This document shows, in pieces, positions 221-31,612 of a stretch of DNA of 33,743 bases. The stretch comes from a bacterium. GTDB lineage: Bacteria > Patescibacteriota > Minisyncoccia > Portnoybacterales > JAGGTM01. The first letter of the stretch is position 1. Each line of letters begins with the position of its first letter. The position numbers and the translations under genes are program-made. The notes under the pieces are model-generated. The model made no database searches and had not been told where the DNA came from. It saw only the letters and a program-made list of their open reading frames with translations. Location of the stretch: assembly GCA_021163745.1 (NCBI GenBank), contig JAGGTM010000044.1:1-33743 (forward strand), read 5' to 3'.

Positions 221-260
221 TCCCCGCCTAAATTTTTCTTTGAAAAAACTTAGGCGGGGA
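221..260. other. GC-rich stem-loop in the mreC-mreD spacer
   Basis: tccccgcctaa (221-231) pairs perfectly with ttaggcgggga (250-260). The 18-nt A/T loop adds about 5 further pairs. No adjacent U-tract on the minus strand, so it is not a canonical terminator. Confidence 0.6.
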
Positions 261-263
261 ATA

Positions 264-1080: not shown

Positions 1081-1458
1081 GTCAAATCTCAAAACTCCCG
1101 CTCCAAAGGAGCGAGGCTCGCCCAGCCCTACTTTTGGAACAAAAGTAGGGCTGGGCGAGCAAAACTCAAATCCAAATCTTAAATCTCAAAACAAATTTAA
1201 GCTCAAAGCTCAAAGTGCAAAGTGCCCCGAAAGAAAGCCTGCGGCTTTCTACGGGGCAAGCAAAGCTAAAGCGTAAAGCTTAAAGCTAAAAAAGAAAAAT
1301 TTCGCTTTGCGCTTTGATTTGTAGTTTTGCGCTTTGCGCTTTGCGCTAAAATTAGTTTTGAATTTCAAACATTTGAATTTTGAATTTGCCTGCCCACCTA
1401 AGTTTTGTAAAACAAAACTTGGGCGAGTAAAGGATTTGTAATTTGTGCTTTGGGATTT
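1081..1458. repeat. Mosaic intergenic element copy E1 (heptad arrays plus hairpin modules)
   Basis: Fills the mreB-stop to mreC-start spacer. Contains 7-nt arrays (caaatct, ctcaaag/gcgcaaag and complementary ctttgcg, ttttgaa). Hairpins: 1096-1117; 1116-1160 (20-bp perfect stem, 5-nt loop); 1224-1257 (module C); 1391-1427 (K-type, aagttttgt/acaaaactt). Bases 1188-1287 are about 96% identical to 12900-12999. Confidence 0.85.
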
Positions 1459-3895: not shown

Positions 3896-3996
3896 CAAAG
3901 CTCAAAACTCAAAGCGCAAAGCTCAAAACTACAACTCAAAGCGCAAAGCGAAATTTTCTTTTTCAGCTTTGAGTTTTACGCTGTAGCTTTGTGCTA
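3896..3996. repeat. Mosaic intergenic element copy E2 (short)
   Basis: CAAAG-type heptad array, then a turn (aaattttctttttc), then the complementary ctttg array. Bases 3921-3967 are the reverse complement of E1 1285-1332 (about 43 of 48 nt). Confidence 0.8.
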
Positions 3997-5720: not shown

Positions 5721-6551
5721 TTATATTTCCAACATTAAATTCTCCAGAACCAATCTCGAGTTAATAGAAGAATTCATCAAAAGTAAACGAGCATTCTTTA
5801 TTTTAAGGATAATATCTCTTAATTTTCTTATACTGTAACTCACATTTACATTATTTTTGGTGCTATCTACCATAAATCCCTGACATCCAATTTTTTCAAA
5901 AAGGACATCTCTGAAAAATATAATCCAGTATCTCAAAATATTATTAGCATAAGAAACATCCTTTGCAATATTTTCGGCATATAATAATCTCTCATTCAAG
6001 TCCGAATTTAACAGATTTAAAATCTCATTAATGCTTTTTTTGTAAGTTTTATCATTTAAAATCTCTTTCTTCATTTCTGAAATAGAAGGATGTGGGAAAT
6101 TAATAACTTGCGAGCGAGAGACAATCGTAGGAAGCAAGAAATTGGGATAGGAGGTAATCAAAATTAAAATTGATTTTTCAGGCGGTTCTTCCAATGTTTT
6201 AAGCAAAGCATTTGAGGCCTCTTTTGTCATTGCCTCCGCATTGTTTATAATAGCAATTTTAAAATTGGATTTAAATGGGAATAAACTTAATTTATGAATT
6301 AATTCTCTTATGTGAGAAATCTCAATTGTGGGTGCATCAACTATGATAAGGTCGGGATGAAACTTATAAGGGTTGATTCCTAATATTTTTGCGAATTCCA
6401 AAGCAACTTTTCTTTTTCCTGTATTTTCAGGACCTTTGAATAAATAAGCATGGGAAATTTTGTCTTTTTCTATACTTTTTTTTAAAAACTCTATAATTTT
6501 TAAGTGTGATTTTTTCATTTTTTTTAATTTTATTAATTTCAATTCTACCAT
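5721..6551 (-). CDS. holB: DNA polymerase III delta-prime subunit
   Basis: AAA+ clamp-loader fold motifs (HAYLFKGPENTGKRKVA, NALLKTLEEPP, SRSQ). The track start at 6590 is a TTG lying inside the terminator hairpin of the upstream gene. I prefer the ATG at 6551; the ATG at 6518 is also possible. Confidence 0.75.
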   Translation of the reverse strand: MVELKLIKLKKMKKSHLKIIEFLKKSIEKDKISHAYLFKGPENTGKRKVALEFAKILGINPYKFHPDLIIVDAPTIEISHIRELIHKLSLFPFKSNFKIAIINNAEAMTKEASNALLKTLEEPPEKSILILITSYPNFLLPTIVSRSQVINFPHPSISEMKKEILNDKTYKKSINEILNLLNSDLNERLLYAENIAKDVSYANNILRYWIIFFRDVLFEKIGCQGFMVDSTKNNVNVSYSIRKLRDIILKIKNARLLLMNSSINSRLVLENLMLEI

Positions 6552-6587: not shown

Positions 6588-7876
6588 CAATTTATTCTTC
6601 TTAAATAGGGAATCTCTCTGCGCAGTTCATAACTGCGCAACTTTTTCTTTTTGGAGCCTAATTTATAAAATTCTAAAATCCATCCATTTTTTCTTCTTAC
6701 GGGTCTCATTTCTATAATATCTCCTATTGTGCAACAATTGCGTAGTTTCACTTCCAATCTTTTCCTACCTACTCGTCCTATGAAAAACACAGCATCCTTC
6801 TCCAATTTTTTCCTTATAGGAAAGAGGGGTATCTTGTCACTGCTCTTAATATAATCCTTAATGGATTGATTTAACTTGAAATTGTATAATATAAATTCTT
6901 TTCCTTTTCCTCCTTTCACAAAATATAATTTTCCATCCTCTAAAGATTTAAATATCCACCCATAATATTTAACAAACCTGAATTGCGATAAAGTTAATTC
7001 AGAACCAATCGGAGCACCGTCTTTACATACTCTGCCTTCTATAACGTTTCCCTTATATTTTCCGAGGAAGAATTTTTTTTCTCCTTTCCTATTTCTGCTC
7101 CTTACTTTAATTTTAATTCTGGGTATTTTTCTCTTTTTTTTAAACTTTCCTTCTGCTATAATTTTTACTACATACCTCCTATTTGAAATATTGGCGATTT
7201 CCTTAATTCCAGAAACCAGCAGAATCCCTAGTGTTCTTTTCACTCTTTTCCCCCAGAATGCTCCGGAAAAACTTCTGGAGACTAATCCAGTGTGCCAAAA
7301 CAAATAGAAAATCAACTTACATAATTCCTCTTCATTAAACTCGCCTAAAAATTTTTTCCAATATCTCATTTCATCATCTTTTTTCTTCCAAGGATTAAGA
7401 AGAATAAGAACCTGGGTCAGTATATCTATCATCTTCTTCTTATCTCTTTTTAACAGATAATTTAAAATAGCCCCTGTTCCTTCTCTGCTATATTTTTCTA
7501 TAAAACTCAATTTCCTTATTCCGTTCAAAAATAATTTACCTGGCTCCCTCAAAGATTTTTCAAACTCTTCTACTATTTCTTTCCATGTCTGACCTCGAAC
7601 CACCAGATTTTCTAATGCTTTCAGGGATACGCATGAAAATAATTCGGATGGAATTCCCAGTTTTCTTGCCCGATCGAATAATTTCTCTCTCTTTTTCTCT
7701 AAAAGATATTGTTCTTTTGATAATATCCTCAACTTATACCTTTTTTGAAGTATTTTAATGCTGTTTGGGTCTCCCTGTCTTGCTTTGTCTAATAATATCT
7801 TTCTTCTCTCTTTCTCTTTATCTAAAAACTCTTTAATCTTCGCACTGCTTCTATACATATCTTTAACTTTAAACAT
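6587..7876 (-). CDS. Hypothetical highly basic protein, 429 aa
   Basis: Long uninterrupted ORF preceded by the strongest SD in the window (AAAGGAGGTGAgaagaaATG). It has its own terminator. No motif I recognise. The C-terminal half contains two similar modules (FFLGKY..IEGRV..GWIFKS..YFVKG and FFIGRVGRKRLEV..GWILEFYKLG). Confidence 0.8.
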   Translation of the reverse strand: MFKVKDMYRSSAKIKEFLDKEKERRKILLDKARQGDPNSIKILQKRYKLRILSKEQYLLEKKREKLFDRARKLGIPSELFSCVSLKALENLVVRGQTWKEIVEEFEKSLREPGKLFLNGIRKLSFIEKYSREGTGAILNYLLKRDKKKMIDILTQVLILLNPWKKKDDEMRYWKKFLGEFNEEELCKLIFYLFWHTGLVSRSFSGAFWGKRVKRTLGILLVSGIKEIANISNRRYVVKIIAEGKFKKKRKIPRIKIKVRSRNRKGEKKFFLGKYKGNVIEGRVCKDGAPIGSELTLSQFRFVKYYGWIFKSLEDGKLYFVKGGKGKEFILYNFKLNQSIKDYIKSSDKIPLFPIRKKLEKDAVFFIGRVGRKRLEVKLRNCCTIGDIIEMRPVRRKNGWILEFYKLGSKKKKLRSYELRREIPYLRRIN

Positions 7877-8997: not shown

Positions 8998-9040
8998 TTT
9001 TGTTGAAAACTATTAATCAAAAAGAAACAATAATAATTTT

Positions 9041-9868
9041 CTATTTTCTTATAAATTTGGGCGGAGTCAAATTTTCAATTACTTTATCAAATAAATCTAA
9101 ATATCTAATATTTTCTTCATTAATCAAAAATGGAAGTAATTGTTTTTTAAGAGATTTTAATTTTGGTTTAACCTGAGAATATCTTTTAAGAATTGCCTTT
9201 TTGTAGTCATCTAAATTTTTTATTTTAACTTTCTTTAAAGTGATGAAATTTGGAAAAATTCCTTTAGATAAAAGCCAAACCACATCATAGAAATCTCTTG
9301 CTCGGGCTGGTTTTCTGTAAATTATGGCTAAACTTTTTTGAGATAAAATTGTTTCTAAGGTATTAGAAACAACTGTTTCAATTACTCCAAATCGATTTAA
9401 AAGAAAAACTTTTTGAAAGACAAGATAATCAGGTTTTGTCATTTCAATTTTAATCATCAACTTTTCTTCCTTGAGTGGAGAAAGGTTAACTTCTTTTAGT
9501 AGTCCGCCGCCAAACTTTAAATACCCTCGCCAAATGTTCTTTCTAACTTTTTTAAACTTAAATTCCAACTCAAATCCTTCTTGAATTAATTTTTTAGTTG
9601 CATTTTTAAAAATTCTTTCTAAAACTATTGTTTTTAGCCCTAAATTGTCAAAATCCAAATCTTCAGAAAACCTATCTAAATTATGAAGCAGTCTCAAACT
9701 TGTGCCTCCAATAAAACTAATTTGAGAAGATTCTTTTTGTTGATAAAGATACTTCAAAAAATGGCATTGAAGATACTCTCGAAGAATAGCCCGCTTTTTA
9801 AAAGAAGGAATTCCCAAGGACTTTCCCATTTCTATTATATTTTCCCAGTCAAATTTTATTTTTTTCAT
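9041..9868 (-). CDS. abiEii: AbiEii/AbiGii-family nucleotidyltransferase toxin
   Basis: 275 aa with the N-terminal motif FIGGTSLRLLHNLDRFSEDLDFD typical of DUF1814/AbiEii nucleotidyltransferases. It overlaps the upstream antitoxin-like gene by 20 nt. Confidence 0.8.
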   Translation of the reverse strand: MKKIKFDWENIIEMGKSLGIPSFKKRAILREYLQCHFLKYLYQQKESSQISFIGGTSLRLLHNLDRFSEDLDFDNLGLKTIVLERIFKNATKKLIQEGFELEFKFKKVRKNIWRGYLKFGGGLLKEVNLSPLKEEKLMIKIEMTKPDYLVFQKVFLLNRFGVIETVVSNTLETILSQKSLAIIYRKPARARDFYDVVWLLSKGIFPNFITLKKVKIKNLDDYKKAILKRYSQVKPKLKSLKKQLLPFLINEENIRYLDLFDKVIENLTPPKFIRK

Positions 9869-10478
9869 AAAATTGATAAATTTTTTTAGTTATCTCAAAA
9901 ACTCTTTTATTCTGAAAAACTTTAGCCATTTCAAAACAAGTTTTCCAAGAAAAAAAATTATCAAAACAAAATCTTTCTTCAGAGAAATCTTCTATTTCTT
10001 TCAATCTTTTTAAATTAAAATAAATAAAATCTAAAAGGGCTTTTTCGGGCACAGCAATGTTGTAAAAAAACTTTTTATCATTTGAATAAACACTTTTAAA
10101 TCCGAAAAAGTAATCTTTTTTAATATGACAAAACCAAAAATCACCAAAAATGGTTTTAAACTTCCTGGTAGTTAGCGGAGTTAAAGAAATTACCTTTTGA
10201 GAGATATCCGGAATAATTCCATAATAATTTAAAGCAGTTTCTAAGCTAATATAAGAAGGGGAAAGAAGTTTTTCGGCGAGATAAAACTGATCAGAAATTT
10301 CTACTTCTGGAAACCAAAAGAGACCTTTTTTTATTTTCTTTAAATAACCTTTTTTAATCCATTTATTAAGATCAACCTTCAAAGTAAAAAGATTGACTTC
10401 CGGAAACCATTTTAAGATATCAGCAAAAGTAAATAGCGGATATTGAGAAATTTTTTTTCTTAAAAGTTCAAATCTCAT
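9849..10478 (-). CDS. abiEi: AbiEi-like antitoxin / transcriptional regulator
   Basis: Start trimmed to the ATG at 10478 (MRFELLRKKISQYPLFTFADILKWF, a winged-helix-like N-terminus). The longer track ORF would overlap the glycosyltransferase. Its position and overlap with abiEii fit the type IV TA layout. Confidence 0.65.
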   Translation of the reverse strand: MRFELLRKKISQYPLFTFADILKWFPEVNLFTLKVDLNKWIKKGYLKKIKKGLFWFPEVEISDQFYLAEKLLSPSYISLETALNYYGIIPDISQKVISLTPLTTRKFKTIFGDFWFCHIKKDYFFGFKSVYSNDKKFFYNIAVPEKALLDFIYFNLKRLKEIEDFSEERFCFDNFFSWKTCFEMAKVFQNKRVFEITKKIYQFYEKNKI

Positions 10479-10554
10479 ATATTTAAGAAAGTTATACTTT
10501 TTTATAACTTTCTTAATTGTATTATAAAAATACTTCAATGTCAACTTTATAACT

Positions 10555-11670
10555 CTAAAAAACTTCTGTAAGCACCTCAAATGTCTTTTTTGCCGATATA
10601 TTCCAACTAAATTTTTTTGCGTTCTTTTTTCCCTCTTCAATCAACTGTTTCCTTAACCCTTCACTTGAAATAACACTGTAAATTCCTTCTGCAATACTAT
10701 AAATGTTATGAGGATCAACAAAAACCGCTCCCTTTCCTGCTATTTCAGGCATAGAAGAAATATTAGAGGTTATAACAGGAATACCCGAAATTTGTGCTTC
10801 CAAAATAGGCATCCCAAATCCCTCATAAAATGATGGCAGGACAAAAACATCTGCATTTTTTAATAACTCCCATTTCTTTCTCTCTTTTACATATCCCTTA
10901 AATTCTATTTCAGAGTTCATGCTTTTGTATTCTTTCATTGTATAAATTTTACTCCACCCATATCCCTTTGGACCTATCAATATTAATTTATGAGGAATAT
11001 TATATTTCTTTTTTAGAAAATAAAATGCAGAAATGAGACCAAAGATATTCTTTTTAAGCTCAATCCTTCCTATGAATAGAATATAAGGATGTCCTACATA
11101 ATTACGGGTCAAATTCCTTTTCCAAACCGGTCTTTTAACTCCGTGATAAATTACACTTATTTTTTGTGGATCTGTATCATACAATTCCACTAAATCATTT
11201 TTCGTATTTTCCGACACTGCAATAATCTTCTTAGAATATTTTAATGCATACAAAGTAGTAAATTTAAGATACTGCCTTTTCCAAAAAGAATAATAATAAG
11301 GATAATGCTCGTATTCCAATCCGTGAATAGTCACTATAGAATTTTCTGGATGAATTAACGGCAAAGTATGAGCGGGAGAGAAAAATATATCCGGTTTCCT
11401 AAAAACAAACTCCGAACTTAATCTTATCTGCGTCCACATAGGAAATTTCCACTTTAATTTCTCGATTTTTAAATTGGACTTAGCAAGAGTTTTAAATTCG
11501 TCGAATACATAAATTTGCTTATAGTTTAATTTATCGGGAAGATATAAAATAAACTGATGATGTTTTGCTTCAGGTAATTTTAGTAAACTTTTTATCAATT
11601 GATAAGAATACTCCTCAACTCCTGTTTTACGTTTTCTCGTCAATGCAGTAGAATGTATTCCGATTTCCAT
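10555..11670 (-). CDS. Glycosyltransferase family 4 (GT-B)
   Basis: 371 aa with FYEGFGMPILEAQISGIPVITSN, the classic GT4 E-x7-E region. Confidence 0.85.
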   Translation of the reverse strand: MEIGIHSTALTRKRKTGVEEYSYQLIKSLLKLPEAKHHQFILYLPDKLNYKQIYVFDEFKTLAKSNLKIEKLKWKFPMWTQIRLSSEFVFRKPDIFFSPAHTLPLIHPENSIVTIHGLEYEHYPYYYSFWKRQYLKFTTLYALKYSKKIIAVSENTKNDLVELYDTDPQKISVIYHGVKRPVWKRNLTRNYVGHPYILFIGRIELKKNIFGLISAFYFLKKKYNIPHKLILIGPKGYGWSKIYTMKEYKSMNSEIEFKGYVKERKKWELLKNADVFVLPSFYEGFGMPILEAQISGIPVITSNISSMPEIAGKGAVFVDPHNIYSIAEGIYSVISSEGLRKQLIEEGKKNAKKFSWNISAKKTFEVLTEVF

Positions 11671-11679
11671 TTATTCAGT

Positions 11680-11720
11680 TTACCCCGCACTACTCTTATT
11701 ACAAAAGTTATGCGGGGTAA
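11680..11720. other. GC-rich stem-loop between mreB2 and the glycosyltransferase
   Basis: ttaccccgca (11680-11689) pairs perfectly with tgcggggtaa (11711-11720) around a 21-nt A/T loop. Same style as the hairpin at 221-260. No U-tract. Confidence 0.6.
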
Positions 11721-11745
11721 ATTAATTAACAATTCATTAATTTGC

Positions 11746-12753
11746 TTATCGTTTTACCATTATTGCCCTTTTGTAAAATTCTAAATGTTCCAAAGCGATA
11801 CCTGTCCCTCTTGCTACACAAAGCATAGGGTCATCTGCAATAAATACAGGAACTCCAGTTACATTAGTAATCAGTTTATCTATATTCTTTAATAACGCCC
11901 CTCCACCACTCAAGGTCATTCCTTCGTTTATAATATCGGCACATAGTTCAGGAGGGGTTTCTCTTAAAACTGTTTTTATTGTATCAATTATCTCGTACAG
12001 TTGCTCTCTTATTGCACCGGCAATTTCATTTGTTTTAACTTTTACAACTTTAGGCAATCCATCTATTAAATCTCTCCCTTGAATCTCCAATTCTTCTTCC
12101 TCTTCTTCTGAAACAGCGCTTCCTATTTCTATTTTTATTTGCTCGGCTGTCTTTTCTCCAATTGCTAAATTATGTTTTTTTCTTATGTATTCGGAAATAG
12201 ATAAATCAATCTTGTCTCCTCCAACTCTGGTAGAGGCACAAGATACAATTCCACCCAGTGAAATTACCGCCACTTCCGTAGTTCCTCCCCCTATATCTAT
12301 AATCATGTGACCACTGGGTTCATTTATAGGAATCCCTGCACCAATAGCTGCCAAAATCGGCTCTTTGATTAGATAGGCATGCTTTGCGCCAGCTTTAACA
12401 CTTGCTTCTGTAACTGCCCTTCTCTCTGTAGAAGTGATTCCCGCGGGAACCGCTACCATAACTTCTGGTTTAAAAACCCTAAGTCTGCCTAATGCCTTTT
12501 TAATAAAATACCGAAGCATAGCCTCGGTCACACGGTAGTTTGCAATAACCCCGTCCTTCATCGGTCTATAAGCCACAATACTATCTGGTGTCTTCCCCAG
12601 CATCTCCTTTGCTTTCTTGCCAACAGCCAAAATACGATTGTCATCGACAGACACCGCTACTACGGTAGGTTCATTAATAATAACCCCCTTCTTTGGAATA
12701 TAAACCAATGTATTTGCGGTACCTAAATCAATGCCAATTTTTTTGATAAACAT
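11746..12753 (-). CDS. mreB: Second MreB-family actin-like protein
   Basis: Roughly 60% identical by eye to the MreB at 1461-2516 (IDLGTANTLVY, IDIGGGTTEVAVISLGG, GGGALLKNIDKL). Start set at the ATG at 12753 (MFIKKIGIDLGT). The track start at 12783 is a TTG inside repeat E3. Confidence 0.9.
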   Translation of the reverse strand: MFIKKIGIDLGTANTLVYIPKKGVIINEPTVVAVSVDDNRILAVGKKAKEMLGKTPDSIVAYRPMKDGVIANYRVTEAMLRYFIKKALGRLRVFKPEVMVAVPAGITSTERRAVTEASVKAGAKHAYLIKEPILAAIGAGIPINEPSGHMIIDIGGGTTEVAVISLGGIVSCASTRVGGDKIDLSISEYIRKKHNLAIGEKTAEQIKIEIGSAVSEEEEEELEIQGRDLIDGLPKVVKVKTNEIAGAIREQLYEIIDTIKTVLRETPPELCADIINEGMTLSGGGALLKNIDKLITNVTGVPVFIADDPMLCVARGTGIALEHLEFYKRAIMVKR

Positions 12754-12762
12754 GATAATATA

Positions 12763-13320
12763 AGCGCAAAGCTCAAAGCGCAAAGTGTAAAGCTAAAGCG
12801 TAAAACTTAAAGGTTATTAAAATATCTCAAATCTCACCCAACACCACTCTGGACTCCACAGTGGTGCTGGGCAAATCTTAAATCTACATCTCAAATCTTA
12901 AAACAAATTTAAGCTCAAAGCTCAAAGTGCAAAGTGCCCCGAAAGAAAGCCTGCGGCTTCCTACGGGACAGGCAAAGCTGAAGCGTAAAGCTTAAAGCTT
13001 AAAAGTAATTAAATCCTAAATTCAAAATCCTAAATTTTTACCCGCCCAAGTTTTGTTTCACAAAATTTGTACGGGCAGGCAAATCCAAATGACCAAAATT
13101 CAAAATTCAAAATGCCCACCCCCACCTTAATCCTCCCCTCCGACTTATGTCGGAGGGGAGGATATAGAATGGGGAGGGGTATTCGTTTTGAATTTGTAAT
13201 TTTGAATTTGGGATTTGTTTGGAATTTGTAATTTGGAATTTGGGATTTTAAAATTGTAGCTTTGCGCTATAGTTTTGCATGCTCTGTAGAAAACCGCAGG
13301 ATTTCCTTCGTGTCGCTTTG
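12763..13320. repeat. Mosaic intergenic element copy E3 (largest regular copy)
   Basis: Contains CAAAG heptad arrays and hairpin 12837-12871. Module C lies at 12936-12969, with a degenerate inverted copy at about 13276-13312. A K-type hairpin lies at about 13041-13078. The P module spans 13114-13183 with a 13-bp perfect core stem (13132-13161). Complementary gaatttg/ggatttg arrays run 13186-13250. Confidence 0.85.
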
Positions 13321-13322
13321 AT

Positions 13323-14585
13323 CTAATTATCTCTCACCCTTCTAATATCTGCTCCAATTTTAGAAAGCCGTTGTTCTATTTCTTCGTACCCTCTGTCAAT
13401 TTGATAGATATTCTCAATTTCTGAACGACCGGACGCTAAAAGACCTGCAATAATAAGAGCAATTCCTGCCCGAATATCGGGCGATATCAATTTTCTTCCG
13501 TATAGCTTAGTGGGCCCTCTTACTAAAACTCTATGAGGATCGCACATTAAAATATTCGCACCCATCTGATTTAAAATATCTGTATAAAATAACCTCCCTT
13601 CGAAAATAACCTCTTGTACCAAAGAATCGCCATGCGCCTGAGTCAAAAGAACAGTAAAGGGAGGTTGTAAATCTGTAGGAAATCCCGGGTATTCTTTTGT
13701 TTTTATATTAACTGCTTTTAATTTAAAAGGCGGAATAACTTCTAAATAATTACTTCCCGTCTTGAAATTTACTCCTGCTTTTTTTAAAATCTCCAGAAAT
13801 ACTTCTAAGTGCTCCGGAATAATACCCGAAATTTTTATTCTGCTTTTAGTTGCACCGGCCAAAATGGCAAAACTTCCTGCCTCTATTCTATCCGGAATAA
13901 TCCTACAATTAGCACCATTTAATTTGCTAACCCCATCTATGCAAATAGTATGAGTTCCTGCTCCCTTTATTTTCGCTCCGCATTTATTCAAAAAACTAAT
14001 CAAATTAACTACCTCCGGCTCACAAGCGCAGTTTATCAAAACACTCCTTCCTTTTGCAAATACTGATAAAATAATCATTGCTTCTGTTGCGGTTACAGAA
14101 ATTATAGGAAAAACAAACTTTGTTCCCTTTATTTTCTTTGCTTTAAGACAATATCCATTTTTAACGGGAATTATTTTTGCTCCGAATCTTTCAAATCCAC
14201 TTAAAAATATATCTCTCGGTCTCTGTCCAATCACGCATCCGCCAGGATGCGGGAAAAAACTTTCTCCCTCCCTTGCCAATAGTCCGGCAGAAATCAAAAT
14301 AGACGCCTTAAGCTTTTGGGAAATCTCTTGGTCTAAATGTGTAGTAGCAATGTCTTTTACCCAAACTCTATAAGTTTTCTCTCTGGTTCTCTCTATATTC
14401 GCTCCTATTTTTTTAAGTAACTCTATCTGCCTTAACACATCCTCAATCAATGGAATATTGGAAATAACACAGGGCTTTTCAGTTAAAACCGTTCCCGCCA
14501 GTATAGGAAGCGCAGCATTTTTTGCTCCGTTAACCCTTATTTCTCCTTCAAGTCTTCTTCCTCCCTTTATAATAAATCTCTCCAT
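13323..14585 (-). CDS. murA: UDP-N-acetylglucosamine 1-carboxyvinyltransferase
   Basis: 420 aa, full-length MurA pattern (GAKNAALPILA, active-site loop GGCVIGQRP, PGFPTDLQ). Confidence 0.95.
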   Translation of the reverse strand: MERFIIKGGRRLEGEIRVNGAKNAALPILAGTVLTEKPCVISNIPLIEDVLRQIELLKKIGANIERTREKTYRVWVKDIATTHLDQEISQKLKASILISAGLLAREGESFFPHPGGCVIGQRPRDIFLSGFERFGAKIIPVKNGYCLKAKKIKGTKFVFPIISVTATEAMIILSVFAKGRSVLINCACEPEVVNLISFLNKCGAKIKGAGTHTICIDGVSKLNGANCRIIPDRIEAGSFAILAGATKSRIKISGIIPEHLEVFLEILKKAGVNFKTGSNYLEVIPPFKLKAVNIKTKEYPGFPTDLQPPFTVLLTQAHGDSLVQEVIFEGRLFYTDILNQMGANILMCDPHRVLVRGPTKLYGRKLISPDIRAGIALIIAGLLASGRSEIENIYQIDRGYEEIEQRLSKIGADIRRVRDN

Positions 14586-14697
14586 ACAACTATCCTATAT
14601 TAAACAACTTTATTTTTCAAGAAGCCGTATCAGAACTCACTCGTACTAGGATTTACCGTATTAGGGTTTTGTACTCGGCTCGTCGAGAGCAAAATCC

Positions 14698-15570
14698 TCA
14701 ATTATGAATAAAAATAAAAGTGCCTATATCCGCAAAATTATATACAGTTTCAGCCGGGCCAACACCTAAACGCACGCAACCATGAGAAACCCGCTTACCC
14801 AAATGACCTACTCCCTCCCTATATCCATTTGGCCAATAAGGAAGTTCATGAATGTATACACCCGGAGCAAATTTTAGAGAATAAGGCATATAAAGTTTGT
14901 ATTTATACGACCAATGATTTCTTTCTTTGGTTAAAACCTCAAAATTGCCCAAAGGAGTAGGCATCCCGTATCTGCCCGTAGATACATCAAAAACCCCCAA
15001 CACTCTACCATCTTTGTAAATGGCTAAAATCTGATCGCCGATATCTATATCAATATATTTACCTTTGGTAATTTTTGGTTTACTTAATTTTATTACTTTC
15101 CCATTTGGCTTTGTGATATAATTTTTTGAAATAGGCAATTTGCCGGGCTTTACTTCCAACAAATTTAAGGAAGAGGGCGGCAAAATTTTGAAATTAAATC
15201 TTTTATTCTCTAATTTAGTTAAAGCGTAACTTCTGACATTAGAAATAGAAATATTATACAAAGTATTGTATTCCGGCCAAAAGGGTATAAAAATAACTTC
15301 ACGATTGGAATCTCTAAATAAAAACTCTCCTCTGGAAAAAGGATTAATTTTAAATCCTTTTTCAAAAGAACTTTTAATTACAGGTTGATTAAAATAAAAA
15401 ACAACTTGATGATAGGGGGTAGAAATCAACTTTATCTCACATTTTAATTCAAAAACCCGGGAGTAAAATTTAATCCCGATAATTACAATAATTACAATAA
15501 TAGTTACTCCTAAAAATGCTATTAATAATTTGTTTTCATTGCTCTTTAAATTTATGATATTTCTGTTCAT
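14698..15570 (-). CDS. L,D-transpeptidase (YkuD domain), membrane anchored
   Basis: N-terminal TM helix and a C-terminal YkuD catalytic motif (HELPYW..., SHGCVRL). Confidence 0.85.
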   Translation of the reverse strand: MNRNIINLKSNENKLLIAFLGVTIIVIIVIIGIKFYSRVFELKCEIKLISTPYHQVVFYFNQPVIKSSFEKGFKINPFSRGEFLFRDSNREVIFIPFWPEYNTLYNISISNVRSYALTKLENKRFNFKILPPSSLNLLEVKPGKLPISKNYITKPNGKVIKLSKPKITKGKYIDIDIGDQILAIYKDGRVLGVFDVSTGRYGMPTPLGNFEVLTKERNHWSYKYKLYMPYSLKFAPGVYIHELPYWPNGYREGVGHLGKRVSHGCVRLGVGPAETVYNFADIGTFIFIHN

Positions 15571-15611
15571 AGAACGTTCTGTGGACTAAACTAATAAGCA
15601 GAAATTACTAA

Positions 15612-15880
15612 CGAAAATTCAAAATGCAAAAATCAAAAATCAAAACAACATTCAAGCGCAAAACTTATTAAAATTCCAAATTCAAAATTACAAATTCAAA
15701 ATGAATACCCCCTCCCTTCCTATGTCCTTCCCCGACTCGTGTCGGAAGAGGATTAAGATGGGGGCGGGTATTTTGAATTTTGGATTTTGGCCATTTGGAT
15801 TTGCTTGCCCTCCCAGGTTTTGTCCCCGCCCGCCGCAAATTTCTTCGAAATTTGGGCGGGCAAGCAAAACTTGGGCGAAT
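15612..15880. repeat. Mosaic intergenic element copy E4 (divergent spacer)
   Basis: CAAAATT/CAAATTC arrays, a P module at 15704-15772 (aataccc...gggtatt), complementary ttttgaa/ggatttt arrays, and a nested K-type hairpin at 15808-15878 with an inner 14-bp stem (15828-15861). Confidence 0.85.
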
Positions 15881-18244: not shown

Positions 18245-18570
18245 AATATTAAAATTATCAACCAAAACGAAACCCTATAGCATAGCTAACCCGTATATTA
18301 ACGGCAAATACAACGAAAATAACCAGCCATGTACTGCATCTTTACGCCAGCGGCTTTCTGTTATGATGCAGGCAAACCCCACACCACGGCTTTACACTAC
18401 AGCTGTAGTGTGGGGTAATTTATAATCTATTTTCTAATTAAATAGGAAAATCCAACTCGTGTCGCAAATATAAAGTTGTTTTCCGGATCCGGAGGAAGTC
18501 CGGTATAATGGTTTATTATTTCCAAAGATCAAAGATCTTGGTTATTAAATCCTGTATATTAAAATCTATC

Positions 18571-20336: not shown

Positions 20337-20379
20337 CAATTTAGCAATTAACAATTGGCAATTGGCAATTGGCAATTAA
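20337..20379. repeat. Heptad tandem array CAATTRR (6 units) overlapping the rpsK stop codon
   Basis: Units are caattta-g-caattaa-caattgg-caattgg-caattgg-caattaa. The last unit contains the rpsK TAA (20376-20378). Confidence 0.85.
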
Positions 20380-21428: not shown

Positions 21429-21584
21429 TGTGCAAATTTTACCATCTTTTTCAAAAAAATCAAGAAAAAGAAACTTCTCTATCTCCTCTTTCTTTAAGGA
21501 GAAAATAAAAAGGAGAGGAATTTATCATTTATTACTCTTATTAATTTTAGTCCATAGAACGCTCTATGAACTAAAAAGCAAAAA

Positions 21585-21718: not shown

Positions 21719-21740
21719 ATTATAAACAAAAGAAAAACCT

Positions 21741-21768
21741 CCAACATCCAACATCTAACGTCTAACCT
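21741..21768. repeat. Heptad tandem array x4 in the infA-rpmJ spacer
   Basis: Units are ccaacat-ccaacat-ctaacgt-ctaacct. The array ends 10 nt from the infA stop. Confidence 0.8.
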
Positions 21769-22070: not shown

Positions 22071-22387
22071 AAGCGCAAAACTCAAAGCGCAAAACGCAAA
22101 GCGCAAAACGCAAAGCCACAGCGTAAAACTTAAAGCTAATTTATTTAAATTCCAAATCCCAAATTACAAACAAATTCAAAATTCAAATGTTCAAAATTTT
22201 GTTTTGAATTTTGAATTTAACTACTTTTGCGCTTTGCGCTGCAGTTTTGCCTGCCCCGTAGAAAGCCGCAGGCTTTCTTTCGGGGAGTTTTGCGTTTTAT
22301 GCTTTGCGCTAAAATTAGTTTTGAATTTTGGTCATTGTTTCGAATTTCGAATTTTTAATATTCAACTCGTTAACTCGTTAACTCGTT
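22071..22387. repeat. Mosaic intergenic element copy E5
   Basis: CAAAG/CAAAAC arrays and CAAATYC/CAAAATT arrays that turn directly at 22190-22215 with no P module. Module C is in inverted orientation at 22254-22285. An AACTCGTT x3 array lies at 22364-22387. Bases 22121-22198 match E6 30836-30920 apart from a one-heptad indel and about 5 substitutions. Confidence 0.85.
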
Positions 22388-30454: not shown

Positions 30455-30607
30455 TTATCTTCTTCTACCTCTTTTTCTGGTAGTCCTCTTCTTTGTAGTA
30501 GCCTTTCTTCTTCTGGTAGTCTTTCTTCTAGTTGTTCTTTTTGCCGCTTTTTTTCTTGTCGTTCTTTTTCTGGTGGCTCTTTTCCTGGATGTTCTCCTTT
30601 TTGCCAT
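30455..30607 (-). CDS. Candidate small Arg/Lys/Thr-rich basic protein (50 aa)
   Basis: Not in the ORF track. Manual translation gives MAKRRTSRKRATRKRTTRKKAAKRTTRRKTTRRRKATTKKRTTRKRGRRR then a stop. It has TTRK-like internal repeats, ATG start and TAA stop. It is the longest open frame in an otherwise ORF-free 950-nt region. There is no clear SD, but most genes here lack one. Confidence 0.4.
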   Translation of the reverse strand: MAKRRTSRKRATRKRTTRKKAAKRTTRRKTTRRRKATTKKRTTRKRGRRR

Positions 30608-30739
30608 ATAATTTAACGTCAATTTAACCGAAATTAATCAGTTAATTGATGCATATTTTTTAAGATACCCCCCTACGGCTATTAAGCCGTAGTATGAGAG
30701 TAAATATCGACCTTTCTTTTCTAGATTAGAAAAATATTT

Positions 30740-31306
30740 CAATTCAAAATTCAAAATCATTTTTAAGCGCAAAACTCAAAGCGCAAAGCGCCCCGAAGGA
30801 AAGCCTACGGCTTTCTACGGGGCAGGAAAACTATAGCGTAAAGCTTAAAGCTAATTTATTTAAATTACAAATTACAAATCCCAAATCCCAAACAAATTCA
30901 AAATTCAAATGTTCAAAATTCAAAATGAATACCCCTCCCCCCTCATTCTCCCCCCTCAAAGAGGGGGGAGATTAAGAGGGGGGTCTCCTCCGCCGTAATT
31001 TTGTTCCAGAAAGCTAAGGCTGTTCTAATTATTGAGAGTAAATTCTGAGTTTTCTCGCAACCCTATTTGTGTGACAAAATTACGGCGGGGGAGGATTAAA
31101 GTAAGACCACTTCAATTCCTCCCCCTCCCCTTGGGAGGGGGAGGATTAAGGAGGGGGAGGGTATTTTGAATTTTGCTTTGCCCTTGTAATTTGCGAAGCA
31201 AATTGTTTAGGGAGTTTTGACTTTTGAGATTTGAGATAAATTAGTTTTGAATTTTGGATTTTGGTCATTTGGATTTATTTGGGATTTGTGATTTGTAATT
31301 TGGAAT
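30740..31306. repeat. Mosaic intergenic element copy E6 (expanded)
   Basis: Module C at 30790-30823. CAAATYC/CAAAATT arrays at 30856-30927 are mirrored by arrays at 31243-31306 that run up to the hpf stop. The P region is expanded to 238 nt (30928-31165). It holds perfect hairpins at 30948-30970 (10 bp) and 31117-31145 (13 bp), and a 15-bp stem (30990-31004 with 31074-31088) enclosing a 69-nt loop. Confidence 0.85.
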
Positions 31307-31612
31307 TTATTTATACTTGTATCTTTCAATCTGCCTTATTAAACTTTCCTTAATTTCGTCTATGGCTAAATAAATATCCCAACTTTCTGATTCTGCACGA
31401 AGAAGTTTTCCGGGCAAAGAAATATTTGCTTCTGCATAATAAACATTCCCTTTTCTATGATGCCTGCTTGGTTTCCCCACTTCTACTTCTATCTTGACTA
31501 CTTCTTGGTCTATTCTTTTCAAAAATTTCGTTAAGCCACCAATACGCTTTTCTATGTATTCTTTAATAGACGGAGATAAATCTATATTAGTTGTTTTGAT
31601 AATAATCTGCAT
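31307..31612 (-). CDS. hpf: Ribosome hibernation promoting factor (short HPF/RaiA, S30AE family)
   Basis: 101 aa with the beta-alpha-beta-beta-beta-alpha pattern. The N-terminus MQIIIKTTNIDLSPSIKEYIEKR is typical of HPF. Confidence 0.85.
   Translation of the reverse strand: MQIIIKTTNIDLSPSIKEYIEKRIGGLTKFLKRIDQEVVKIEVEVGKPSRHHRKGNVYYAEANISLPGKLLRAESESWDIYLAIDEIKESLIRQIERYKYK

Follow-up and report, generated by a model that had tools for sequence, protein, structure and literature searches.

Repeat mosaics in six intergenic spacers

Contig JAGGTM010000044.1 (33,743 bp, ~33% GC), which was taken whole and is referred to below as the window, contains six intergenic spacers built from heptamer arrays and short GC-rich hairpins. 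The present work concerns these spacers, above all the one at 12763-13320 between mreB2 and murA, and a 36-nt hairpin within them, module A, that looks like an undescribed family of mobile DNA resembling repetitive extragenic palindromic (REP) elements. Nearly all genes of the window are encoded by the minus strand, with a GC skew that stays steadily below zero. The gene content is of housekeeping type, with a ribosomal-protein cluster, rpoA and an infA-like open reading frame (ORF; infA assigned by eye), and genes for an alanyl-tRNA synthetase (AlaS-type), a tRNA methyltransferase (MnmA-type), MurB, a protein of EPSP-synthase fold with MurA relatives, two MreB paralogues, MreC, an M50 protease, a YkuD transpeptidase and an AbiEii toxin. 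Among the gene names given in a first-pass annotation made from the sequence alone, those of MreC, the two MreB, the M50 protease (RseP-like) and the EPSP-synthase fold/MurA protein were borne out by Pfam and by relatives, whereas its proS could be assigned by Pfam only as a class II aminoacyl-tRNA synthetase. No tRNA or tmRNA genes are present in the window. The nearest named relatives of the MurA-like protein belong to Candidatus Portnoybacteria, Parcubacteria and Patescibacteria (61-67% identity), with one further relative at 87%, and the host is thus a bacterium of the candidate phyla radiation (CPR). A cyanobacterial host, which the STRR-like heptamers had first suggested, was rejected on the strength of these relatives.

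Tandem Repeats Finder (TRF) returned rows throughout 1160-1387, 3896-3949, 12762-13258, 15614-15802, 22071-22354 and 30741-31308, confirming the period-7 arrays reported earlier. When self-matches of at least 60% were counted in 56-nt windows, period 7 gave 224 positions, compared with 11 for period 3, two for period 8 and none for the other periods from 4 to 12. The GC-rich hairpins were recovered where the first-pass annotation had placed them, both as inverted repeats and in folds. Its claims of homology between spacers also held, since 1188-1287 and 12900-12999 differ by 4 mismatches in 100 nt, 1285-1332 differs from the reverse complement of 3921-3967 by three mismatches and one gap, and 22121-22198 and 30836-30920 are separated by one 7-nt indel and three substitutions (about five had been counted). 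All-against-all blastn in the window found blocks of up to 134-144 nt common to spacers, with 84-92% identity and in both orientations, which confirms a mosaic of homologous modules whose blocks are reshuffled between spacers. The six spacers amount to 2,190 nt, or 45% of the 4,887 nt of intergenic DNA in the window; all six carry the kit as claimed, but smaller parts of it also occur at 228-262, 11682-11723, 20344-20377 and 21736-21766. The parts are mapped in Table 1.

Read in register, the spacers have each GC-rich module interrupting its array exactly at the junction of two units. Ten hairpins were placed by eye, namely four copies of module A (1225, 12937, 22250 and 30791), three of module B (1389, 13041 and 15804) and single hairpins D (1116), E (12837) and F (15824). 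All ten are located at a heptamer unit boundary with CAAA (AAAA in one) directly 3', and the strand of the hairpin tracks that of the array, plus in CAAANNN arms and minus in NNNTTTG arms.

The spacer at 12763-13320 (spacer 3) begins with an array 10 nt from the mreB2 ATG (12751-12753, minus strand). Hairpin E corresponds in position to hairpin D of spacer 1, and the sequences beginning right after D and E, 1159-1292 and 12871-13004 respectively, are 92% identical. Module A follows in the context GTGCAAA GTG[36 nt]CAAAGCT, and its excision in silico leaves a seamless array; its 36-nt boundaries were fixed by the filled and empty sites in LigA described below. Module B (13041-13079), homologous to 1389-1427 (reversed) and to 6937-6961 and 9220-9237 of L028 and L115 (L numbers denote fetched loci outside the window), has termini in common with module A (CCCCG/CCCGCC ... 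[C/G]TACGGG(G)CAGG). Module C, in which an outer stem (CCCACCCCC/GGGGAGGGG) surrounds an inner 15-bp stem (CCTCCCCTCCGAC/GTCGGAGGGGAGG), has relatives at ~15705-15772, 30926-30986 and 31117-31165 and centres the palindromes of spacers 3, 4 and 6; 13073-13216 matches the reverse complement of 15671-15810 at 84% identity (blastn). The C-type cluster of spacer 6 consists of three nested hairpins with ATTAAG/ATTAAAG after each. A decayed module A starts 9 nt past the murA stop, pairs with 12937-12972 in the long fold and is retained after murA in L001 (2407-2431).

Long palindromes had been described for each spacer, and the folds confirmed them, although only ~390 of the 558 nt of 12763-13320 are palindromic and the left ~170 nt form a separate array and hairpin. 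The palindromic part, 12930-13320, is one imperfect hairpin of ~390 nt centred on 13146, with z-scores against dinucleotide shuffles of -11.4 on the minus and -13.4 on the plus strand. The outermost pairs in the folds of all six spacers span 82-445 nt (z of -4 to -17, mononucleotide shuffles). The evolving unit is nevertheless not the long palindrome, as had been supposed, but the 35-45-nt hairpin, plus the heptamer arrays.

A further claim was that the elements must be compatible with, or provide, termination and initiation signals; the second of these proved unneeded. Counts of promoters and terminators in 12600-13500 were not above those of shuffles, and a GGAGG-like Shine-Dalgarno sequence was found for only 2 of the ~34 window genes (upstream of 7876 and 28587), plain A/T-rich sequence preceding the remaining starts with or without an element upstream. 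Because most window genes lack a Shine-Dalgarno sequence, starts near elements need no special signal. The Rfam scan of the window gave no match at gathering thresholds, and at E<=1 only chance miRNA/snoRNA matches far below thresholds, in agreement with the earlier failure to recognise an RNA family.

Table 1. Repeat parts of the window, and related genes and in-frame elements in fetched loci (L numbers)
Feature	Position	Strand	Remarks
Outer left heptamer array, spacer 3	12763-12812	+	AAGCGCA/AAGCTCA, i.e. CAAAGNN; TRF period 7, 7.4 copies
Hairpin E (CCCAACACCACTCTGGA / TCCACAGTGGTGCTGGG)	12837-12871	+	17-nt arms, 88% complementary; CAAATCT directly after
(CAAATCT)n then (CAAAGCT/CAAAGTG)n arrays	12872-12936	+	TRF 12873-12902, 12911-12927, 12923-12937
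Module A, 36-nt hairpin CCCCGAAAGAAAGCCTGCGGCTTCCTACGGGACAGG	12937-12972	+	Between CAAAGTG and CAAAGCT
(AAGCTTA)n and (TAAATCC)n arrays	12973-13036	+	TRF 12981-13003, 13010-13035
Module B, 39-nt hairpin CCCGCCCAAGTTTTGTTTCACAAAATTTGTACGGGCAGG	13041-13079	+	3' terminus GTACGGGCAGG as in module A; then CAAATCC
Inner left array (CAAATCC)(AAATGAC)(CAAAATT)x3	13080-13113	+	Mirrors 13186-13216; TRF 13094-13113, 100% match; inverted repeats
Module C, C-rich/G-rich double hairpin	13115-13182	.	Palindrome centre; inverted repeat, folds
Right-arm arrays (TTTTGAA/TTTGGGA/TTTGTAA)n then GCTTTGCGCT	13183-13268	+	Complementary to left arm; TRF 13186-13258
Decayed module A (minus strand ACACGAAGGAAATCCTGCGGTTTTCTACAGAGCATG)	13278-13313	-	nhmmer 13286-13310, E = 0.004
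Spacer 1, mreB/mreC mosaic	1081-1458	.	Folds with outermost pair 1084-1458, z = -16.6; small hairpin ~1097-1116, hairpin D 1116-1159, arrays, module A 1225-1260 (+), arrays, module B 1389-1427 (-)
Spacer 2, arrays only	3896-3996	.	Reverse complement of 1261-1343, 91.6% identity
Spacer 4 mosaic	15612-15880	.	Arrays, module C ~15705-15772, arrays, module B 15804-15877 (-)
Hairpin F	15824-15864	+	Nested in module B loop, directly 5' of CAAAAC in the stem of B
Spacer 5 mosaic	22071-22387	.	Arrays; module A 22250-22285 (-), GTTTTGC at both sides
Spacer 6 mosaic	30740-31306	.	Arrays, module A 30791-30826 (+), arrays, C-type cluster ~30926-31165, right-arm arrays
Module G, long hairpin	30985-31095		
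Solitary B-like hairpin (minus strand CCCCGCCTAAGTTTTTTCAAAGAAAAATTTAGGCGGGG)	228-262	-	Four nt past mreC stop; no arrays
Hairpin CCCCGCACTACTC...TTATGCGGGGTAAA	11682-11723	+	Between family 4 glycosyltransferase (GT4) gene and mreB2; superfamily terminal design (CCCCGCAC ... GGGG-TAAA)
Small arrays without hairpins, (TTGCCAA)n and (GTTGGAT)n	20344-20377 and 21736-21766		Minus-strand reading; spacers after rpsK and infA-like ORF
Y1_Tnp genes	L159-L164 ~10001-10760; L058 243-998; L081 1847-2587 and 8324-9037		
In-frame miniature mosaics	L053 1555-3837; L078 794-2605; L121 826-1287		topA; GluRS-like; rplR
Further in-frame miniature mosaics, like those above of heptamer units with one or two 36-nt hairpins in opposite orientation	L120 285-1808; L139 459-2804		cysS; gyrA

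Insertion, target and structure of module A

Four LigA orthologues show reciprocal presence and absence of an insertion at two sites, with a difference of 12 residues (codons) at each. At the first, the empty site reads GGC CAG AAA ACT and the filled site GGC CAA AA[CCCCGAAGGAAAGCCTTCGGCTTCCTACGGGGTAAG]A ACT, while the second is filled by the reverse complement of module A. Target duplication is absent at both. At the level of sequence, these sites demonstrate that module A is a discrete 36-nt unit, inserted precisely and without target duplication. A 7-bp target duplication at every insertion, with the arrays as footprints, was considered and dropped because the LigA empty site shows none.

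In the flank logo of 129 non-redundant copies among the matches listed, positions -6 to -2 are A-rich and the 3' flank starts with C (57%), A (73%) and A (63%) at +1 to +3, which points to a preferred target of roughly AAAAN^CAAA, or TTTG^ on the other strand. When module A is taken out, the junction so healed has a 7-nt period in 11 of the 138 copies compared in the same matches, vs 0.37% of background windows (~21-fold; p = 7e-12).

Module A belongs to a superfamily whose members are hairpins of 35-45 nt that share the termini CCCCG...[C/G]TACGGGG-YARG, with a variable stem-loop in between. Among 36-mers chosen by termini alone (CCCC at the start, TACGGGG-YARR at the end), 40 distinct sequences were found with several unrelated inner stems, e.g. 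CCCCGCACCAGAACCTTCGGTTCGGTACGGGGCAAG, and ~30 further distinct variants of 33-51 nt with other inner stems are present in ~1 Mb of fetched loci. When 20 distinct 36-mers were aligned without gaps, pairing was observed in 97.7% of cells, compared with 82.7% in shuffles and at most 55% with partners slid, and six stem pairs were changed on both sides (40 cells); on this alignment covariation maintains the module-A hairpin. On its reverse strand the sequence is CCCC-GTAG-GAAGCC, with GTAC in variants, and T26, A27 and C28 are invariant. The GTAG-like motif is internal, with an outer 5-bp clamp on one side and the inner stem on the other, rather than at the free end. A UNCG tetraloop, which would imply RNA-level selection, was considered and dropped, as the fold gives a 3-nt loop closed by C-G.

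Module A and heptamer mosaics in other genomes

In order to find further copies, one genome per species was scanned with the module-A pattern (six positions free), which identified 37 stretches from 33 assemblies, nearly all labelled Patescibacteria/CPR. The host labels include Nealsonbacteria, Paceibacteria, Azambacteria, Gribaldobacteria, Minisyncoccales, a Paceibacter single-cell genome and others. A metagenome scan identified at least 120 contigs with module A, and the two scans together gave at least 157 copies at no fewer than 94 distinct sites, the commonest form being CCCCGAAGGAAAGCCTTCGGCTTCCTACGGGGCAGG(C). Most assemblies have 1-3 exact pattern matches. Viral contigs gave 0 matches to the pattern, and there is thus no evidence for a phage vector. 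A few module-A contigs are labelled outside Patescibacteria (L004 Bacillota, L022 Planctomycetia) or have flanks that are GC-richer by eye, L012 and L024 also being in this group; they may reflect mis-binning or real spread beyond the phylum.

Among the matches listed, 60 of the 94 distinct sites lie within ORFs (stop-free frames) of at least 200 codons, and the family can therefore not be called intergenic, as the first-pass annotation had it. Of these sites, 57 are sense and 3 antisense, vs 3:2 expected from open frames (p = 5e-10). The ORF insertions are in frame and the host gene continues on both sides, the three forward frames giving the peptides PEGKPSASYG, PKESLRLPTG and RRKAFGFLRG. 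Host genes that are intact by Pfam encode DnaJ, a Mur ligase, ValRS, TopA, L18, GyrA, CysRS, a P-type ATPase, ClpP and FtsZ. The window has four intact copies in 34 kb, all intergenic. Several intergenic copies elsewhere (L007, L039, L044, L060 and L080) are situated 20-160 nt from tRNA genes (Gln, Pro, Ile).

Heptamer arrays are also frequent outside the window. A loose criterion applied to 251 kb, the first 38 loci fetched, gave 19 period-7 regions (one poly-C), compared with 1-3 for each other period from 4 to 12, and in 878 kb of Patescibacteria loci a strict one gave 103 period-7 arrays, compared with 1-8 for periods 5, 6, 8 and 9. The unit sequences vary between arrays, and some arrays are inside ORFs. 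Miniature mosaics in topA, a GluRS-like ORF and rplR combine CAAAAAT units with module A and, pointing the opposite way, another 36-nt hairpin (topA and rplR assigned by Pfam, GluRS-like by eye; Table 1). Hairpin-free arrays in frame were observed in ValRS (L002 5148-5206) and LigA (L021 4067-4124 and 2492-2558), where they add short peptides relative to orthologues, e.g. LISNQQSVISNL in L021 LigA.

Absence of the modules elsewhere, which the first-pass annotation had named as an outcome speaking against a family, did not occur; besides module A in many Patescibacteria, contigs of three relatives carry the same kit in other orders (L023 300-835; L115 6064-6457 and 8964-9270; L001 1-170). The element of L023 (JAGGVA01) is ~540 nt long, ends 12 nt before a start codon and consists of D, arrays, B with nested F, and reversed A; 45 nt of hairpin F are 100% identical to L023 499-543. 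L115 has two mosaic elements and no genes in common with the window, and its hairpin D is 100% identical over 61 nt. L001, which encodes the 87% MurA relative, is 84.6% identical to window positions 13236-15702 and keeps the decayed module A after murA and ~40 nt by the ykuD start, whereas its arrays and downstream gene differ from those of the window, so that the synteny break coincides with the repeat. The gene after murA in L001 (2471-2835) resembles a hydrogenase-maturation protease by eye, where the window has mreB2, and the last ~120 nt of this contig are abruptly GC-rich, a chimeric contig end being possible. At E<1e-3 the only matches of modules B, D and F are in L023, L028 and L115, with a weaker 16-nt B/F match to L038 added at E<1e-2; for modules C, E and G the fetched loci contain none.

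Candidate transposases

A 251-aa ORF beside a LigA gene that carries module A was identified as Y1_Tnp (42.5 bits, cutoff 23). In NCBIfam it matches the REP-associated tyrosine transposase (RAYT) best, with 48 bits, short of the equivalog cutoff of 80, and both the HUH and the Y..NP motif are present. More than 3,500 family members were counted at E<=1e-5, the top ones 60-79% identical to the query. Searches by tblastn with approximate RayT/IS200 TnpA queries gave only weak matches, one of which (L058) led to the Y1 gene; its homologues are present in only 2 of 158 loci compared. In six long-contig loci (L159-L164) a Y1 gene is directly upstream of ftsW, and in L159-L163 it directly follows ligA, a 1,916-aa ORF lying between the two in L164. 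This syntenic Y1 gene is flanked by inverted hairpins of the GCTAGCGGAGRCCCGTYCTCCGC type, the stems of which covary between genomes, and it looks like a domesticated, vertically inherited transposase. L081 has two Y1 paralogues, each with its own palindromes, one of which is a 36-nt CCCC...GGGG-GCGAG unit. HUH-Y1 enzymes that appear to act on hairpins are thus native to these genomes, and as regards module A they are candidates only. An Avd-like protein (PF22296 bAvd / 23S_rRNA_IVP), a type associated with diversity-generating retroelements, is encoded near the Y1 loci in L161-L163 and is at most a hint that retroelements occur in these genomes.

Comparison with described repeat families

In behaviour, module A comes closest to the Rickettsia palindromic elements, which are reportedly ~100-150 bp long, inserted in frame in ORFs and restricted to Rickettsia. 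Both are palindromic selfish DNA in frame in housekeeping genes, where they add a peptide; module A is however only 36 nt (12 codons) long and has a heptamer context, and the sequences are not known to be related. The closest anatomy is that of the SDR/STRR repeats of Nostocaceae, where the SDRs are said to be 21-27 nt long, with shared inverted termini, and to lie in heptameric tandem repeats. Very small mobile palindromes with a variable core between shared inverted termini, within heptamer arrays, are common to both systems, while the present ones are 35-45 nt long, apparently differ in sequence, belong to a different phylum with small genomes and have massively colonised ORFs. SDR-like repeats were not found in other HIP1-rich cyanobacteria, and SDRs are reported only from Nostocaceae (PMC5861425). 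The heptameric repeats of Xanthomonas and Nostoc are similarly over-represented, intergenic, length-variable between relatives and sometimes in inverted pairs, but are G-rich (GGGAATC, GGGGATT) and quadruplex-forming (PMC4692102), unlike the A/T-rich CAAANNN units found here, which are also present in ORFs and are interrupted by hairpins.

IS200/IS605 elements move through single-stranded intermediates, target the lagging-strand template and are recognised via subterminal hairpins (PMC6006769). Palindrome-associated elements derived from them share with module A a non-autonomous nature, hairpin ends, lack of duplication, a short target and a strand bias (PMC6006769), but module A is a single 36-nt hairpin rather than two distinct ends. 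Miniature inverted-repeat elements of DDE type differ in having terminal inverted repeats and target duplication, as the LigA sites differ by exactly 36 nt. CRISPR arrays likewise do not match, the copies being solitary or irregularly spaced with heptamer array as the intervening DNA.

REPs are 20-40 bp long, often in inverted pairs and sometimes intragenic, and are presumed to be mobilised by RAYTs (PMC3733652). The REP/BIME/REPIN and RAYT systems of Proteobacteria (PMC3733652, PMC3116915, PMC6006769; BIME, bacterial interspersed mosaic element) resemble the present system in their 20-40-bp palindromes, often in inverted pairs that fold into larger structures, in mosaic clusters between co-directional genes with some copies intragenic, notably in replication and repair genes, in a GTAG/GTAC-type motif beside the stem and in the presence of HUH-Y1 enzymes, here in the host phylum. 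Module A, a covariation-supported hairpin of 36 nt, is within the size range of REPs. It differs in carrying its tag between the outer CCCC/GGGG clamp and the inner stem, whereas that of REPs is at the free end; in lying mostly within ORFs, in frame (60 of 94 sites listed), whereas REPs are predominantly extragenic; in its few exact matches for most assemblies, compared with hundreds for REPs; and in having one sequence common to many differently named lineages. As regards BIMEs, the mosaic and its alternating orientation are alike, but the linkers are variable heptamer arrays instead of fixed motifs. A REPtron, i.e. a RAYT gene flanked by dispersed REPs, was not found, the Y1 genes examined being flanked by other palindromes. 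Module A is thus REP-like, with the GTAG-tagged REPs as the closest family (PMC3733652), and is placed outside any named family because it departs from REPs in REPtron arrangement, extragenic location and copy number. Literature searches found no published description of such elements in Patescibacteria, or of the module-A DNA or peptide sequences.

Origin of the repeat nests

The spacers are probably BIME-like nests, in which inverted pairs of CAAANNN arrays have been colonised by several families of 35-45-nt non-coding GC-rich palindromic mobile elements. Of the four hypotheses in the first-pass annotation, the evidence fits a REP/BIME-like element and a non-autonomous mobile hairpin family. 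Nothing argues for phased protein-binding arrays, the unit sequences differing freely between genomes, and DNA-uptake signals are at odds with the low number of exact matches in most assemblies. The hairpins would move as folded single-stranded DNA by means of an HUH-Y1 transposase (RAYT or IS200-IS605-type) acting in trans, a mode suggested by a substrate in hairpin form, a short target, insertion that leaves no target duplication, and a bias of strand. Since the CAAANNN arrays are runs of preferred targets, they would trap hairpins. They would lengthen and shorten by slippage, and recombination among dispersed arrays would build up the mosaic by moving around blocks of 80-145 nt. The long palindrome would then arise only secondarily, from arrays inverted about module C as a palindromic core, and the host may tolerate the elements as operons are read through and the Shine-Dalgarno sequence is rarely used at translation start.

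Several observations weigh against this interpretation. The window encodes no transposase; the hairpins bordering the syntenic Y1 gene are of another kind than module A, occurred nowhere except next to or within that gene and have no match in the window at up to three mismatches; and in ~1 Mb of flanks no Y1 gene is flanked by module A, with none near module A beyond the ligA neighbourhood. Module C, as noted, matched no other fetched locus. Counted strictly and on one side only, arrays within 40 nt of copies are enriched just 2.1-fold (p = 0.13). In the window, 7 of 11 hairpins (the ten placed and the decayed A) are antisense to genes, compared with the 57:3 sense ratio of the matches listed elsewhere, and because of this antisense excess and the intragenic sense bias a simple lagging-strand model is insufficient. 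Where sites are orthologous (LigA in 8 lineages, DnaJ in 7, plus further cases), module A is 98-100% identical while 120 nt of flanks are 51-86% identical, and the element is still 91-100% identical at the 11 positions left free by the search pattern. Neutral decay would not keep the element above its flanks, which argues for selection on the nucleotide sequence, homogenisation or repeated re-insertion. The evidence for the model also does not extend to the source of the heptamer arrays and of their inverted pairing.

A bolder version, to which we give only tentative credence, is that Patescibacteria have a phylum-wide superfamily of 36-nt hairpins, in frame in essential genes, near-invariant in nucleotide sequence over deep divergences, with heptamers as landing pads and partnered with the Y1 gene by ftsW. 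Such a superfamily would represent a long-term symbiosis of host and element with a cellular role, not junk, and the window spacers would be its hot spots; the module-A hairpins would be among the smallest mobile DNAs, and the heptamer arrays would be used, and perhaps generated, by them.

The strong conservation could instead mean that the hairpins are selected RNA or DNA structures with a function, perhaps in stabilising mRNA, in processing or termination or in binding protein, within regulatory spacers, with mobility as their route of arrival. This is rather unlikely, but it would account for nucleotide conservation far above that of the flanks at orthologous sites, for covariation that keeps the stem, for the 57:3 sense bias in the ORFs listed, for the persistence of the decayed A behind the murA stop in two genomes with an overall identity of 84.6% and for the B-like hairpin 4 nt past the mreC stop. 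REPs are, moreover, thought to act as RNA elements (PMC3733652). It is harder to reconcile with the same 36 nt occurring in three frames at 60 unrelated places in housekeeping ORFs among the matches listed, with hairpins in both orientations relative to transcription in the window, with the lack of a T-run, of an excess of terminator-like sites and of an Rfam family, and with arrays whose unit number and type differ between close relatives while ~40 nt by the ykuD start are kept. An RNA intermediate, i.e. a transcribed hairpin copied to DNA by a reverse transcriptase or a reverse-splicing-like activity, would explain the strong sense bias in genes and is compatible with a precise element of fixed length without target duplication, and the Avd-like protein near the Y1 loci is a hint in the same direction. 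We nevertheless regard this route as improbable, as the intergenic copies of the window are mostly antisense to genes, orientation tracks the target array rather than transcription, and the REP-like design fits substrates of HUH enzymes; no reverse transcriptase was seen in the window, the flanks not having been searched for one.

Two explanations without a mobile element fare worse. Heptamer slippage within each spacer, with amplification of palindromes and gene conversion between spacers, is plausible for the arrays, given the 103 strict period-7 arrays in 878 kb, the 80-145-nt blocks common to spacers and a polymerase-slippage hypothesis published for heptamers (PMC4692102). Slippage may, however, account for arrays but not for hairpins, and as a purely local account it is refuted for the latter by module A at 94 or more sites in many genomes, by the filled and empty LigA sites and by identical 45-61-nt modules on contigs without genes in common with the window; overall it is very improbable. 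Short-read assemblers can collapse or invent tandem repeats, and the unit counts of the arrays are perhaps unreliable, but an artefact of assembly or sequencing in low-complexity DNA is the least credible source of the elements themselves, as the same modules are found in independent ENA, NCBI and JGI assemblies, including the single-cell genome ASKX01, and as the insertions are in frame with the host gene intact on both sides.

The genomes of Patescibacteria are very small and thought to be streamlined, yet 45% of the intergenic DNA of this contig consists of repeat nests, and a 36-nt hairpin is present in frame in DnaJ, LigA, TopA, GyrA, FtsZ, ClpP, L18 and several aminoacyl-tRNA synthetases of many lineages. 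Module A therewith offers a countable marker of DNA mobility and horizontal exchange in organisms that for the most part resist cultivation, and a natural collection of 12-residue insertions in essential proteins. It provides a second independent instance, after Nostoc, of mini-hairpins in heptamer arrays, and makes the period-7 preference of bacterial tandem repeats and REP-like movement testable with a 36-nt substrate and a candidate enzyme family. For annotators, module-A insertions and heptamer arrays are real features, not frameshifts or misassemblies.

Other features of the window

The spacer between rplQ and rpoA (18266-18570, 305 nt) contains GC-rich hairpins of superfamily-like design, e.g. 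CCCCACACCACGG...GTAGTGTGGGGTAA, with no heptamer arrays and no Rfam match. Adjoining spacer 6, a 55-aa ORF (30455-30622, minus strand) consists of nearly nothing but K/R/T repeats (MAKRRTSRKRATRKRTTRKKAAKRTTRRK...) encoded by 15-18-nt tandem repeats; it overlaps the tandem repeats at 30470-30588 and possibly encodes a basic protein of the histone-H1 or nucleoid-associated kind. Between two GT4 glycosyltransferase genes, an AbiEii nucleotidyltransferase toxin gene and an overlapping upstream partner ORF (9041-10640, minus strand) probably constitute a toxin-antitoxin pair of AbiE type. A palindrome of 18-20 nt, CCAYAGAAC-NN-TCTRTGG, is found at 15567-15584, where it abuts the ykuD start with the ATG (15568-15570) inside the motif, and at 21552-21569 in the rpmJ-rpsM spacer. 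The window has 4 strand-matches to it, with 0.06 expected, and it also occurs in L001 (~154-176) and L115 (~6378-6425 and 9012-9040). An operator-like site is one possibility, a further dispersed family of palindromes common to the window and these relatives another.

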